A stretch of DNA of 64,000 nt, taken from assembly GCA_040880745.1 (NCBI GenBank), contig JBBDHX010000042.1, positions 4,362 to 68,361 of the forward strand, in the 5' to 3' direction. Positions 24,001-36,000 of this stretch are shown one piece after another. The first letter of the stretch is position 1, and each line of letters begins with the position of its first letter. Position numbers: made by a program. Origin of the DNA: Actinomycetota bacterium (lineage in GTDB: Bacteria > Actinomycetota > UBA4738 > HRBIN12).

Positions 24001-27000
24001 AACGTCTCGCCTTCTGAGCGCGACCACCGCGAAGGACATCCAAGCGCTCGCGGTACTCATCGGCGTCGATCTCGCCGTTCGCGAAGCGCTCGGCCAACAC
24101 GTCTTCGGGATCCCTGCGAAGCTCTCGCCGGCCGTCCGTGGGGGCGAATGCGCGGATCAGGATCACCACGAGGACGACGACGGCCGCCATGGACAGCACC
24201 ATCCACAGCACCCCCCCAGCCGCCGCCGTTCCATCCGTACATCATCTTGAGCTTCCCCTCCCTTGTCGCAGATAGACTCCCTCCGCTCCGGGCATACCGG
24301 GCGAGCCGGAGGTCCCCGGACGGCTGGGCCGGCCGGCCCCAGGTGTTGGAACGCGTGGATCCGGGCCGCGGGACCGTGTAAGGGGGGCAGGCTGCTGATT
24401 GAGCCGGAGGTGCCGATCCGGGGCCAACCTCAGCCGGAACGGGGGATCCAGGACCAGCCGGATTCGACGACCTTCGCCGGTCCATCGACCGCCATCACTC
24501 CGTCGATCTTCTTCCAGCGGAGCCCGCCCCACACCACGAGGCGGTCGCCGGCCCACACCGCGACCGCGCCCTCGTCCGGGACGACCGGGAGAGGTGCAAG
24601 GGCTTCCCACGATCCGTCGAGCGCATCCAAGATGGCCCCCTGGGATGAGACGACGTACCGACCTCCACCCACGGCTGGCCCCGCGTATGCATGTCGATCG
24701 GGAGGCGACGGAAGTTCCTCCCAAACCCCCGTCGAGGGATCGAGCGCTCCTCCATAGGGAGGACCGGTGCCTTGCTCCGAGCCATTATCCCCGACGTGTC
24801 CGATGCTGGGGTTGACGAGTCCGCCCGCGGACCAGAACCAGGACGGGTCGTAGCCCGCGATCCCCGTGTCCGGCAACGCGCGCCACCGGCCCTCGGTCGG
24901 GTCGAAAGTGGCAGCCCGGTACAGATACTCCTCGCCCTCAGCGCGGAGGCCGACCTCGATGCCCAGGAGGATCAGCTCGCTTCCGGTCCAGACGATGCTC
25001 CGGTCGAACGTCGGCATGAGCGGATCAGGTGTGAGCTGGCGCAGCTCCCCGTTCGCGGGCTCGAAGAGGTAGTCGGGCGAGAAGGGCTCGCGCTCCTGGG
25101 AGTCGAGGTACATGACGATGGCGTCATCTGCCGGCGCCAGCCGCATCAGTCCGGCGGATGAGCGTACCTCCGGGGGGAGATCCACCACATCCCACCGGTC
25201 GTCGAGGGGGTGGTACGCGAGAAGGGAGTAGGTCTCCAGGTCAGGCGATCCCCAGACGTACAGGGTGTCGTCTAGGACGGCGCCGGTGTAAGACACGACA
25301 GGCATCGGGGCGTCGGCGATCGTCGTCCAGGTGTCGGTTGGGGGATCGAACGCCGCGCCGTCGAACGGAGCGACGCCGCCGGCCACACAGTGCGCGTCGG
25401 GTTCACATCCTGGGGGCTGCTCAGAGCCACCGATGATCACGACACGGTCGCCGACCCAGAACCCGCTGGCCCCGTACCGGTAGTCGATGGGAGGCTCCGG
25501 CATCGCGAGCCAGGTGCCGGTCGGCTGCGCGCGGACAGATACCGAGGGTGACGGCGACGTCCCAACGTCGACGTCGGGTCCCCGCTCGAGCGCTCGTACG
25601 CCGAGGAAGACCACTCCGCCGAACAGCCCGAAGGCCACGACGATCGCGATGAGACGCTGTCCGGTCGGCGTGCCTTCGTGTATCTCGGGGGATCGGGAGG
25701 GTTCCCTTGTCCGAGCGTCCGCCCACACGTCCGGTGCGTCCACGAGGTCGAGCCTGCGGAGGTGTTCCTTAGCGTCAGGCATCTTGCTGTTCCTCCAGCA
25801 GCGTCCGTAGCTTCCGCCGCCCCTTGCTCAGGTGCACGTGCACGGTCGCGCGGGAGCACCCGAGGGTCGCGGCGACCTCCGAGGTTGGGCGATCGGCGTA
25901 GTCGTGGAGGACCAAGGCCGAGTTGGTGCAGGCGCTGAGGACCCTCTCTCCCAACCAACGTACGTCGGGTACCGCCTCCGGGATCTCGTGGGCGATAGAC
26001 CCATGCTCGACCGGAAGCGCTCGAGTCCGCTGCCTCATCTCGGCGACCGCGATCCGGAAGGAGACGCGCCACAGCCAGGCAGGCAGGTCACGGATTCGAT
26101 GCTCATCGCGCAAGGCGCGGGCAAAGGCCTCGGCGAGGGCATCGCTCGCGATATCGCGATCGCCCGTGAAGCCATGGAGCGCCCGCCACATCCGGTCGGC
26201 GTGCATCCGGTAGGCGGCCTCGACCCGATCGCGTTCGTCCACATCGGCATCCTGCACCGCCCGTACAGAGCGTTCAGGGACCCGGAACCTGTAGGGGGCA
26301 ACACCCGCCCGGTGATGCAGGTTGCGCAGAGCTGTCCAAAGGGCCTCTGACCTGCTGTGGGTACTGCCCCTCTTAACCTGTGGGTACTCGCCGAAGTGGG
26401 GTGGATTCCGTGAGGTCAGGGAGTTCTGAGAACACCCCACCGACTGACTGACCGACCAACCAACTGACCGACCGACCGACCGACCACTCGAGACCCTAGC
26501 TCGGCTACCCGCTCGGGATCCACAACCAGCCCGCGTCTACCATCTCGGCCGCCGTCTCGGTGCGGTTCCAGCGGTACCCGCCCCAGACGATGAGGCGGTC
26601 GCCCGCCCAGACCGCAACTGCCTGTTCATCGGCTTGGGTCGGCGTCGCCGGCAACGCCTCCCATGCCCCCGCCTCAACGTCGAGGATCGCCCCTTGCTCC
26701 GTGACGACGTAGCGGCTCCCGCCGACGCTGGGCCCTCCGTAGGGGGCGAGCCGCTCCGGAGGAGGAGGAAGCTCCGACCATGCGCTTGTGGACGGATCGA
26801 AGATCCCTCCGTAGGGGGGTCCCGTCCCCGCGACGGAACCGTTGTCGCCGACGTGCCCGATCTCGGGGTTCACGACCCGGCCGCCGGACCAGAACCAGAT
26901 GGGATCCCCCATGCTCGGGCTGTTGGGGAGGCGGCGCCAGGTCCCGCGCGCGATGTCGTACGTGGCGACCCGGCGCACGTAGCTCGCCACCTGTGGCGGC

Positions 27001-33000: not shown

Positions 33001-36000
33001 TCTCGAGGCGGATCGCTCGTCATCGACGTAGAAAGGAGACGATGACATGACCGACAGACTGATCTTCAACTGCACCTACGGCTCCGAGGAACCAGAGCGC
33101 GCCACCCTCCCGTTCGTGGCCGCGAACGTCGCCGCGACCGCGGGCCAGGACGCGGTGGTCCTGTGCACGATCGACGCGGTGTGGCTCGGGACGAGCGACG
33201 GCGCGGACGGGATCGCTCAGCCCGGGTTGCCGGTGCTAGACGACCTCTTCAACGACTTCGTGGACAACGGCGGCCAGGTCTGGCTCTGCGGCGCTTGCAC
33301 GGGTCCTCGCGGGATCGCCGAGGATCAGCTTCGCAAAGGCGCCACGATCGTCGGCGCGGCCAAGGTCGTCGAGGAGGTCGTCAACGGGGCGCGAACGATC
33401 GCCTTCGCGTAGATCCGTAGATCGCAACAGGAAAGGGGGAAACGAGATGCCGGAGTTCATGGACGTGCACAAGGGGATGGTGGGTATCACGCCGGAGAAC
33501 TTGATGGAGGCGCATCGGGCTGACCTGGACATCCAGGACGACGAGGGCGTCAACTTCAAGCACGCGTGGGCCGACCCCGATTCGGGGATGGCCTGGTGCC
33601 TATCGGAGGCGCCGAACGCGGAGGCCGTGAAGAAGATCCATCAGCGCACCGGCCATCCAGCCGACGAAGTCTTCCCGGTCCCGATCCAGGTCTGATCCGG
33701 CCGGAGGAGGTTCTCCCCAGGGCCGGGGCAGACGATGCCCCGGCCCTGATGCTCCGCGAAAGTGAGGAGCTCAAACGCCACACCCAAGGGCGCGAGCCCC
33801 CAGCAGATCCGTAACGCCGATAGGTCGGCGCGACGCCGACGATCTCGGCTACGAAAGCTGGTCCCCAACCCATCCCCAACTCATGGACAGGTCGACAATC
33901 GCGAGAGCGCTTGCAGCGCAAGTGTTGGGTACTAACCCCTCTTAGCCTTGTGGGCACTCCTCTACTTGAACACCGTTCATGCAGGTCAGGGAGTTCTGAG
34001 AACACCCCTCCGGGGTGTTCGCAGAACTGCGGTCCCTGACATCTCAGGACTCAGCTGAAGGCGATCGCGCGGGTCGGTGCGCTTGCAGACGCGAAGCATG
34101 AGTGTCAGTCGACGCCGACCGGGATGTTGATCAACGCTCCAAAGGGGGCCCCGGGGATCGACGACGCGGCCCACGCGTGGCGGGCCGTTCGTCCCCTGAT
34201 GTGACCAGGGCCCCATGGTTAGCTCGGGGTGGAAAGGGTGATGTGGCATGCGAGCGCGCGTGATCGTGCTGGTGGCGGCCGTGGTCCTCGCGGTGCCGAG
34301 CGTGGGCTGGGCAGCGCCCGGCGACCTCGACCCCGCCTTCGGGGAGGGCGGCCGGGTAACGGTCGCGTTCGGGGAGGGGTCCGCCGCGAACGACGTCGCC
34401 ATCGCTCCCGATGGAGACCTCATCGTGGCCGGATGGCTCGAGGGCATGGTCGCCGTGTTCCGGTTCCGGCCAGGTGGGGCGATCGACACCGCATTCGGTG
34501 AGGACGGTGCGACTTGGGTCCGGCTCGGCCACCAGGGCGACGAGGCGAACGCAGTCGCGATCCAGCCGAACGGGAAGATCGTCGTGACCGGCACCGACAG
34601 CCGGGAGCGGTTCGTGACCGTGCGGTTCCAGGCCGACGGCGACCTCGACCCGTCCTTCGGCGGAGACGGCATCGTCCGCTCCGCTCTCGCGGATGGCTTC
34701 CGCGTCGCGAACGACGTGCTGATCCAGCCGGACGGCCGCATCGTCGTGGTCGGGTGGTCCGGGGACCGTACGCCGAAGTGGGCGCTCGTTCGCTACCTCC
34801 CCGACGGGCGTATGGACCGCACGTTCGGCGACGACGGGTTGGTCGTGACCCCCTACCGCTGGGCGATGGCCTACGGGGCCGCGCTCCAGCCGGACGGCCT
34901 TATCGTCGTGACCGGCTACAGCTCGTGGGGTTTCGCGGTGGCGCGGTACAGGCCCGACGGCCAGCTCGACCGGAGCTTCGGCGACGGCGGCAAGATCGCA
35001 CAGGATGAACCCAGCCTCGTGATCACGGGCGCAGTTGCGGTCCGGCCGGATGGCAGGCTCGTGCTCGGTGGGGACCGTGACATCTTCCGACACGCGATCG
35101 TGCGGCTCATGCCGGACGGCAGCTACGACCGGTCGTTCGGCGGCGACGGCGTCGTCGTCGTTCACACGGGTTGCTGCGAGCAAGGCATCACGGCCGTCCT
35201 TCCGCTCGCCGGCGGGAAGGTGCTCGGGGTCGGCTATGCAGGACCACACGAGTCCGCCGATGAGGTGCCGGCCCGGTTCGTGGCCCTGAGGCTCCGAAAC
35301 GACGGCACCCTCGATGACACGTGGGGCGGCGACGGGAAGGTCGTCACTGTCTTCCCCCGCGGCGCGCGCGCGTGGGGCGTGGCGCTCCGCGGGGACGGGC
35401 GGCCCGTACTCGCGGGTGCGATCGGGTTGAACGGCGGTGAGGGGATCGCGTTGGCCCGCTACCTCGTGTGACTGATCACCCGTATGGGCGACGCTGGGCG
35501 ACGCGGCGATGGTCGCACCTGTAGTCAACAGGGACCTTCGCGAGCGCCGGCGAGGGGCGGAGCATCTGCTCAGTGAGCATCGAGTGCACCTCCACTTCGA
35601 TCGAACTCGGCGCGTGTCAGCGGACGCGCTTGTCCCAGATCGAGCTGGGGACCCCGGTCGTGCCGAACTCGTGCACGAGGGCAGCGCATCGGAATCTGGT
35701 CGCTCTTGGGGCCGGTGGGGAAGCCGTTCCCGCACGCCCGAACCGACCGACCAGCTGGCCGATGTGCTCACTCACCCTTCGGGGGCAATGGCGGTCCCAC
35801 GAACTCTTGCTGATAGCGGGCGCCGATCGCCATCAAGGTCTCCCGGTCAACGAACTCCTCGCCCGGTGGCGGCAGGCTGACCGCGCCCGCGGGTTTGCCA
35901 CCCTCGCGGAAGAACCCCTCGACGCCCCCGGGGGAGAAGAACAGCAGCAGTCGCGCTTCATCCGAATCCACGCGGAACGCGTGCGGAACGCCGCGAGGTC

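Follow-up and report, generated by a model that had tools for sequence, protein, structure and literature searches.

Variable islands occur in the genomes of uncultured soil Actinomycetota, and their origin is unclear because standard annotation shows no recombinase. We analyzed one such island in a stretch of 64,000 nucleotides from an Actinomycetota bacterium (contig JBBDHX010000042.1 of assembly GCA_040880745.1, positions 4,362 to 68,361 of the forward strand), referred to here as the window. Three copies of an element of about 100 nt, which we call E, divide part of this window into gene modules. What are these elements, and how did the modules come to lie between them? A reading of the window made from the sequence alone, the sequence-only reading, had offered two alternatives: ends of an insertion sequence (IS), or recombination sites of a cassette-like array. 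That reading is partly borne out, and our results support merging its two alternatives. E is probably the transposase-proximal end, and a second element, S6, the other end, of a family of DDE transposons that home to the tRNA-Tyr gene and build a cassette array by decay and stacking. Judged from its proteins, this family is a previously unannotated, distant relative of IS1182/IS4. The array is now linked to a specific family of enzymes, to DNA ends and a target that are both defined (the target being the 3' end of tRNA-Tyr), and to cassette transfer between species that can be measured, and annotators gain a means of recognizing such islands.

Anatomy of the elements

An nhmmer model places the copies at 26342-26444 (E1), 30462-30563 (E2), and 33926-34010 (E3), in keeping with the three co-oriented copies of about 97 bp reported from the sequence alone. 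A sensitive search of the whole assembly (2.35 Mb, 52 contigs) found exactly these three, all within 7.7 kb and in the same orientation; chance would not produce such a likeness. E1 (plus strand; 98.8 bits, model positions 1-103) is a full copy of the predicted transposase-proximal end, about 100 nt long, in which 5' module A is followed by a pair of TGTGGGTACT repeats and, at the terminus, GTTCTGAGAACACCCC; it is 85% identical to E2 over 107 nt. E2 (plus strand) is also a full copy and has an orthologue at L115:2311-2410 in a congeneric genome. E3 is a diverged copy (56 bits, about 75% identical to the others), in which the small hairpin CTTGCAGCGCAAG at 33910-33922 replaces the 5' module GGCCTCTGACCTGC, so that the element with its hairpin spans 33910-34010 (plus strand). 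Its terminus is intact, and all three copies share the 3' end GAGAACACCCC.

The letters next to the copies are also as first described. ACC follows E1 and E2; it leads into 50-60 nt of (ACNN)n repeats with a 4-nt period, a feature to which the sequence-only reading gave no emphasis. The E1 tail (26439-26487, plus strand) consists of ACCG, ACTG, and ACCA units and ends 18 nt short of the stop codon of a convergent Kelch anti-sigma gene; the E2 tail (30559-30620, plus strand) lies at the position that the S6 end occupies in the relative L115. After E3 come the letters tcc and an inverted GGGGTGTTCGCAGAAC at 34012-34027. This is the start of S6 (34012-34053, plus strand), the opposite, putatively transposase-distal end in inverted orientation, which reads GGGGTGTTCGCAGAAC..CTGACATCTCAGGACTC. 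It opens the next unit 3 nt past E3, without a transposase remnant, and no further E or S6 was found on the contig (C42) beyond those in the window.

We collected about 115 distinct copies of E from related genomes, with one common orientation within every locus. The 5' module is either GGCCTCTGACCTGC or a small hairpin, CTTGCNNNGCAAG. Two 10-nt TGTGGGTACT repeats are present in E, as the sequence-only reading had noted, though 23 nt apart from start to start and not 24; in one subfamily both change jointly to TGTGGGAGGT. A variable segment of 25 nt and the block GGTCAGGGAGTTCTGAGAACACCCCAC come next, and nearly every copy then carries 0-60 nt of (ACNN)n repeats. E contains invariant runs of 27-44 nt, and mostly lies between convergent genes with a C-rich tail after it. 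The (ACNN)n tails stand behind both E ends and tRNA-Tyr ends (for example in L071), and those of the same cassette vary between genomes in length and sequence. S6 has the sequence GGGGTGTTCTCAGAACTGAGGCCCCTGACATCTCAGAACTCC, of which the first 16 nt exactly invert the E terminus, so that E and S6 share a 16-bp terminal inverted repeat, GGGGTGTTCTCAGAAC. S6 trails at least 24 of 114 distinct E copies, across a spacer of 2 to about 60 nt.

The inverted repeat CTGACC...GGTCAG within E, seen at the outset, is genuine, with pairing in 91.6% of cells over 54 copies. Compensatory changes are absent, and counting the pairs explicitly gives numbers that do not exceed those of shuffled controls. RNAalifold likewise gives E an energy of -6.3 kcal/mol with 0 compensatory pairs, no better than shuffles, and Rfam has no match on E or S6 at gathering or permissive thresholds. 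Because covariation and an Rfam match are both lacking, we read E not as a folded RNA or single-stranded DNA; it fits a predicted double-stranded site for protein binding. A tRNA-like nature was considered and rejected: ARAGORN and Rfam make no call, and only the last 6-8 nt of E resemble a tRNA end.

Distribution and the tRNA-Tyr anchor

E is carried by 20 of 61 related genomes, nearly all of the same genus, in 1-8 clustered and co-oriented copies that stand 1-7 kb apart; hundreds of scattered copies were not seen in this genome or its relatives. When 185,579 species genomes were scanned for the pattern, E turned up only in metagenome-assembled genomes (MAGs) of uncultured soil Actinomycetota, barring a few chance matches. 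Plasmid and phage collections gave no match, the single IMG/VR pattern match being a chance match within a gene. Our literature searches found no description of such arrays.

The arrays are anchored at one gene. Of 10 genomes checked, 7 have tRNA-Tyr 2-50 kb upstream of the array, on its contig and strand. Many genomes and metagenome contigs have S6 immediately after the 3' end of tRNA-Tyr(GTA). Gene maps read tRNA-Tyr, S6 ... E, S6 ... E, and so on, beside conserved YajQ/DUF520, aminotransferase, and decarboxylase genes. The earlier suggestion of miniature inverted-repeat transposable elements (MITEs) does not agree with copies that are clustered, co-oriented, and tied to the tRNA-Tyr locus.

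The tRNA-Tyr gene of the genome under study (G000) is on contig C52, which ends 53 nt past the tRNA in a further conserved element that we call S7 (GTGTGATGTCGCACGACATCG...). C52 (G000:C52:1-137) and C6 (G000:C6:1-55) overlap by 55 nt through S7. Together with a transposase gene that runs off the start of C42 (see below), this overlap may reflect occupied and empty alleles in the sampled population. S7 is also found downstream of at least 8 E copies in other genomes. The tRNA-Tyr locus draws other mobile elements as well: in L154 (G253:C6), at 4874-6028, an unrelated rve-type IS with a helix-turn-helix and an integrase core separates tRNA-Tyr from a tRNA-Tyr 3' fragment that precedes S6.

A transposase between the same ends

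When translated, the DNA beyond S6 reveals what is left of the C-terminus of a decayed gene that runs on the opposite strand (...LLAFTIAGYNVECIRSF...RRKKRRQGTW...DPPP, then stop). A six-frame search of 294 genomes of the order recovered full-length open frames of 525-716 amino acids. In G253, G229, G142, G247, G005, and four independent metagenome contigs, the gene lies directly 3' of tRNA-Tyr and reads towards it, with S6 between the two; the full-length homologues at tRNA-Tyr have 558-716 amino acids.

A complete copy, L157 in G247, joins these parts. It reads tRNA-Tyr, ACCAA, S6, an open frame of 668 amino acids, 373 nt, E, and ACCAA, and forms a unit of 2.75 kb with the perfect 16-bp inverted repeat GGGGTGTTCTCAGAAC at both ends. 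The idea that the copies in the window are IS ends is upheld by this unit, which also contains the transposase with a matching terminal inverted repeat that the sequence-only reading proposed to look for. A 3-bp target, proposed at the same time, gives way to a flanking repeat of 5 bp, ACNNA. In 8 of 16 units, the 5-mer to the left of S6 equals the 5-mer to the right of a following E (for example ACCAA, ACAAA, and ACCGA), a number reached by only 1 of 2000 shuffles.

The only family-level matches of the protein point to IS1182. Pfam DDE_Tnp_1_6 matches at E 3e-5, with 24.6 and 20.6 bits, under the cut-off of 25.1 bits, and NCBIfam transpos_IS1182 (NF033551) at E 1e-11 to 5e-6, with best scores of 44.4, 31.1, and 25.5 bits against a cut-off of 270 bits; Pfam finds no rve domain. 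An IS1182-like element had been suspected from the start, and that part stands as to type. Both scores are below the cut-offs, and the protein is therefore a distant relative and not a member by the Pfam and NCBIfam models. Across 42 homologues (45-66% identity), D162 (AVDGTD), D310 (WDxGYS), and E482 are invariant and K489 nearly so (at least 90%), and the motif RRxxVE-x6-K is invariant or nearly so. By their residues, AVDGTD, WDxGYS, and RRxxVE-x6-K make up a DDE pattern of the IS4/IS1182 type. An AlphaFold model (predicted local distance difference test score, pLDDT, 84) has Tn5 transposase as its best match in the PDB (probability 0.97), followed by piggyBac (probability 0.92), with low TM scores. 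There are at least 226 homologues, all "hypothetical" and without a Pfam domain, some of them from Acidimicrobiales and Thermoleophilia MAGs.

The contig of the window carries a member of this family. C42 starts inside a transposase gene (C42:2-1840, minus strand, apparently intact), whose match of 620 amino acids has no stop codon and is 68.7% identical to the G253 protein. As the window begins at C42:4362, the gene lies about 2.5 kb ahead of it and is separated from E1 by about 29 kb; its orientation relative to E is that seen in L157. The statement that no transposase is nearby is thus true inside the window and fails just outside it.

Genes beside the transposase

Two further genes lie upstream of the transposase gene on C42, and G253, G229, and each of the four metagenome contigs have them in this order. 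The first encodes a protein of 314 amino acids (G000:C42:1429-2373, minus strand, about 2 kb before the window; homologues at L154:1896-2828 and L156:4947-5876). Its family has at least 471 members, nearly all "hypothetical", with no Pfam match, PF00589 included. In Foldseek searches, a structural model with a mean pLDDT of 90 matches Cre, XerH, XerA, and IntI with probability 1.0 and E 1e-6. R178, R260/R262, and H269 are invariant or nearly so, and the position of the nucleophilic tyrosine varies (Y, F, L, D, or N). At tRNA-Tyr, this gene always lies between the transposase gene and the second upstream gene, which encodes a Cas4-like PD-(D/E)XK nuclease by Pfam and NCBIfam searches. Among the proteins beside the transposase, Pfam detected no ATPase, and no TnsD/TniQ homologue was seen.

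Cassette content and exchange

In the window, the cassette closed by E2 (26445-30563) holds a Kelch anti-sigma/extracytoplasmic function (ECF) sigma pair at 26505-28419 (minus strand) and an inverted paralogous pair at 28538-30377 (plus strand). The cassette closed by E3 (30564-34010) holds a SARP/BTAD regulator at 30635-32356 (minus strand), SCO4226-like genes at 32469-32708 and 33447-33695, and a DsrE-like gene at 33047-33412. The unit closed by E1 would have the cargo at 1-26341; its start would lie before the window, where C42:2-3415 carries the transposase, recombinase-fold, and Cas4-like genes.

Three paralogous ECF sigma and (mostly Kelch-repeat) anti-sigma pairs lie at 24430-30377, two in tandem, with about 73% nucleotide identity, and one inverted. 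Their weaker GC bias at third codon positions, compared with their neighbors, suggests local duplication of acquired modules. A protein encoded at 47547-48278 (minus strand) is 73% identical to a cassette gene of G035 that lies directly behind an E-S6 junction, and former cassettes without surviving ends may reach beyond E3.

Comparison with relatives bears on the proposal that the copies of E delimit modules in a cassette-like array. Content and order do vary among relatives, as proposed, and the cargo is diverse: besides ECF sigma/anti-sigma pairs, it includes adenylate cyclases, RibD_C, metallo-beta-lactamase-fold proteins, flavin monooxygenases, TMEM175 channels, and dehydrogenases. It is not specifically made up of signaling genes, contrary to the view that the array accumulates such modules. 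On the congeneric contig L115, E2 and the SARP-SCO4226-DsrE block are retained at 75-78% nucleotide identity, with divergence after DsrE; this contig has a single, different sigma/anti-sigma pair between its two E copies, S6 after E2, and no E3. From this comparison, synteny in the window is partly fixed and partly turned over. The islands of G005 and G035 have almost no synteny with the window.

Single cassettes can be followed from genome to genome. L093 and G011 share a cassette of S6, YCII, ECF sigma, TfoX_N, and E that is 94.9% identical over 2.4 kb, with a core flank of 78.9% over 3.6 kb. It is the first of its array in L093 and the second in G011. The high identity begins exactly at GGGGTG of S6 and drops past CCCCAC of E, and the left neighbors of the cassette (tRNA in one, an E tail in the other) have no homology. 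L046 and L071 share another, 91.6% identical over 3.56 kb with a core flank of 77%, which comes straight after tRNA-Tyr in L071 and behind the first E in L046. Dozens more E-bounded segments are 88-96% identical. On these identities, cassettes have moved between species.

How the array may have formed

We favor the following course of events. The element would insert in a single orientation at the 3' end of the tRNA-Tyr gene, with its transposase gene reading towards the tRNA and a 5-bp repeat, ACNNA, on either side. On its outer side E ends in ...CACCCC-AC, which is like the end of the tRNA (...CTCCC-AC), and from this we infer that a new copy can land either at the tRNA or at an existing E. 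Units would stack head to tail, older ones being displaced away from the tRNA. Over time the transposase module would be deleted, leaving S6 (often with the last 60 or so transposase codons), cargo, and E; G011 has two transposase-less remnants within one array. Such cassettes may still be movable in trans or exchangeable between strains. In the window, E1, E2, and E3 would be the right-hand boundaries of three successive units, and the S6 after E3 would belong to a fourth. The youngest unit is probably the one that E1 closes; its transposase module lies immediately ahead of the window. The analysis shows the anatomy of the elements, the enzyme family, the link to tRNA-Tyr, and the passage of cassettes between species; the chemistry of transposition, the use of E ends as targets, and the parts played by the recombinase-fold and Cas4-like proteins are predicted.

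Several observations weigh against this account. No recognizable S6 lies downstream of 82 of the 114 distinct E copies, and the 4-nt period of the (ACNN)n tails is not explained by a 5-bp duplication. The flanking 5-bp repeats are of low complexity (ACNNA), and the 16 units counted include duplicated loci. L157 is the sole compact copy with both ends and a gene, and the N-terminal half of its protein aligns poorly with the other homologues; in the four metagenome contigs, the 8-10 kb around the transposase module contain no E. The family matches are far below the curated cut-offs (44 against 270 bits). Finally, the transposase C-terminus occurs in only 6 of 38 genomes of the genus, and for this reason most arrays may be fossils.

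A more ambitious version, which we put forward as a tentative possibility, is that the products of the conserved gene set at tRNA-Tyr (a small protein of 154 amino acids, the Cas4-like nuclease, the recombinase-fold protein, and the IS1182-like DDE transposase) form one new multi-protein, tRNA-homing transposition system, in which the recombinase-fold protein would read TGTGGGTACT/TGTGGGAGGT or the tRNA end and so select target and ends. If so, the four proteins would be a transposase-driven counterpart of the integron, one that captures and shuffles regulatory and metabolic modules of kilobase size.

Alternative explanations

The recombinase fold of the 314-amino acid protein invites a different explanation, which we consider unlikely. 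Cassettes would move as circles by integron-like site-specific recombination through a tyrosine recombinase, possibly this protein; E plus S6 would be attP-like, and the DDE protein would move only the platform. The TGTGGGTACT repeats would be arm-type sites and the inverted GAGAACACCCC/GGGGTGTTCTC core sites. The resemblance to Cre, XerH, XerA, and IntI, the conserved R178, R260/R262, and H269, and the constant place of the gene beside the transposase at tRNA-Tyr speak for this explanation. E-spacer-S6 junctions do resemble core sites around a short spacer, the two repeats of E switch class jointly, as the arm sites of one protein would, and arrays at tRNA genes are typical of integrase-built islands such as tycheposons (10.1101/2020.12.28.424599). 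However, the nucleophilic tyrosine position is not conserved in the family, spacers of 2 to about 60 nt are ill-suited to a fixed overlap region, and the 5-bp flanking repeats and perfect terminal inverted repeat are hallmarks of transposition.

Most arrays, moreover, have neither the 314-amino acid protein gene nor a PF00589 integrase nearby. In six array-bearing genomes, PF00589 finds mainly an XerC/D-like pair and a few extra or fragmentary integrases; array contigs have none, save a fragment on G035:C5, which is also the only hit when four integrase seeds are compared (phmmer) with six-frame open reading frames of about 100 loci. As the array enzyme, this fragment was rejected: it stands next to tRNA-Met with a solitary E 4.8 kb away, and none of its relatives in the genus is close to an E. 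The locus itself (L123, G035:C5, 8526-13505) contains a truncated tyrosine integrase whose stop codon is 12 nt past tRNA-Met. The 20 nt behind this tRNA-Met (CCGTTCGTGCAGGTCAGGGG) resemble an internal part of E, and the solitary E follows 4.8 kb further on. Large serine recombinases (PF07508) are absent from the genus bar one genome, and resolvases (PF00239) are found in only 3 of its 38 genomes. A link to Xer/dif was likewise rejected, the best dif candidate (C3:14898) being unlike E and S6.

Next in order of probability, and itself improbable, is that no dedicated enzyme acts today. E, S6, and the tRNA would serve as "portable homology", cassettes being swapped by homologous recombination after DNA uptake, and E would be retained as a terminator, an insulator, or a regulator binding site between modules. 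Such exchange would suit the state of most E-bearing genomes, which have no intact transposase or serine recombinases and only the XerC/D-like pair and a few scattered integrases. The invariant runs in E suffice for RecA; E usually lies between convergent genes with a C-rich tail after it; and E2 was co-inherited with its neighboring genes in a congener. Left unexplained are the terminal inverted repeat, the 5-bp repeats, the anchoring at tRNA-Tyr, and the transposase remnants by S6. Cassette identity also starts exactly at the S6 terminus even though the left neighbors share no homology, and E gives no signal of RNA structure. We find it very hard to believe that E, though short, intergenic, and endowed with an internal inverted repeat, is an ordinary genome-wide repeat (a MITE or a repetitive extragenic palindromic element) or a small-RNA family unrelated to module boundaries, since the assembly has only three copies, adjacent to each other, the copies are clustered and co-oriented in every relative, and neither an Rfam family nor covariation was found.

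Relation to known systems

The tRNA-Tyr-homing transposon that we favor has its nearest counterparts in IS1182 by sequence, in Tn7-like elements by behavior, and in integrons, clusters of attC sites lacking integron-integrases (CALINs), and the accretion of tycheposons by outcome; by current models it is a member of none. The IS1182 family provides the only family-level matches of its protein and has a single large DDE transposase, the pattern D..D(x)G(Y/F)..R(3)E(6)K, and short terminal inverted repeats. In our family we find a DDE triad spaced as in IS4, D(1)G(Y/F) and R(3)E(6)K, and, on both sides of the transposase gene in the single complete copy, L157, terminal inverted repeats. IS1272 of Staphylococcus, an IS1182 family member, prefers structured inverted-repeat targets downstream of genes (PMC5678879). 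Unlike IS1182, the elements described here have a larger protein (540-716 amino acids) and long asymmetric ends, one of about 100 nt and the other of 50 to >200 nt, that contain internal direct repeats; they use one tRNA gene in one orientation, carry kilobases of cargo in stacked arrays, and have recombinase-fold and Cas4-like genes accompanying the transposase.

Tn7-like elements have a TnsB-type (rve) transposase, a TnsA nuclease, a TnsC ATPase, a TnsD/TniQ target selector, and termini of the form TGT...ACA. The behavior described here is similar in its orientation-specific insertion downstream of a conserved gene with a 5-bp duplication, S6 abutting the tRNA-Tyr 3' end in every case seen. 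Further likenesses are the asymmetric ends with internal repeats, the PD-(D/E)XK-type nuclease gene beside the DDE transposase gene, and the tandem piling up of elements, remnants, and cargo at the attachment site. In contrast, the transposase does not belong to the rve/TnsB type, neither an AAA+ regulator nor a TnsD/TniQ homologue was seen, the ends read GGGG...CCCC, and tRNA-Tyr is the target. If the recombinase-fold and Cas4-like proteins take part, this would be a new architecture among the few site-specific, cargo-carrying transposons; a compact element with one orientation and one site is also a potential genetic tool for actinobacteria.

Integrons and CALINs also have co-oriented cassettes, each closed by a related site of about 100 nt, and a single chromosomal anchor (PMC4889954). 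There, too, relatives differ in which cassettes they have and in what order, and many arrays lack an enzyme gene next to them. An attC site has RYYYAAC and GTTRRRY boxes in an imperfect hairpin and is conserved in structure, not in sequence. The arrays described here differ in having no IntI and no attC: R''/R' GTTRRRY boxes are missing (the terminus is GTTCTGA), there is no conserved hairpin, and E, unlike attC, is conserved in sequence (75-90%) and not in structure. Their cassettes are 1-7 kb long, with several genes in both orientations and their own regulators, and they come with a tRNA anchor and a DDE transposase.

In tycheposons, partial tRNA copies stand between units that tyrosine or large serine recombinases move (10.1101/2020.12.28.424599). 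As in tycheposons, cargo elements accrete at a tRNA gene, newcomers displace older ones, and degraded remnants persist. Unlike theirs, our separators are transposon ends, partial tRNA-Tyr copies are rare (occasional 3' fragments), and the loci searched, about 100 in number, contain no integrase bar the G035:C5 fragment. In mobile insertion cassettes and transporter IS, IS ends flank passenger genes without a transposase and insertion is at dispersed sites. Units of S6, cargo, and E with both IS ends and no transposase resemble these and would need a copy in trans; they differ in stacking at one locus in one orientation.

Other features of the window

Two features of the window are unrelated to these findings. 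An actinobacterial small RNA, Ms_AS-4, is recognized by Rfam at 7089-7170 (minus strand) with 71 bits, and a tRNA-Arg(CCT) gene lies at 62948-63023 (plus strand).

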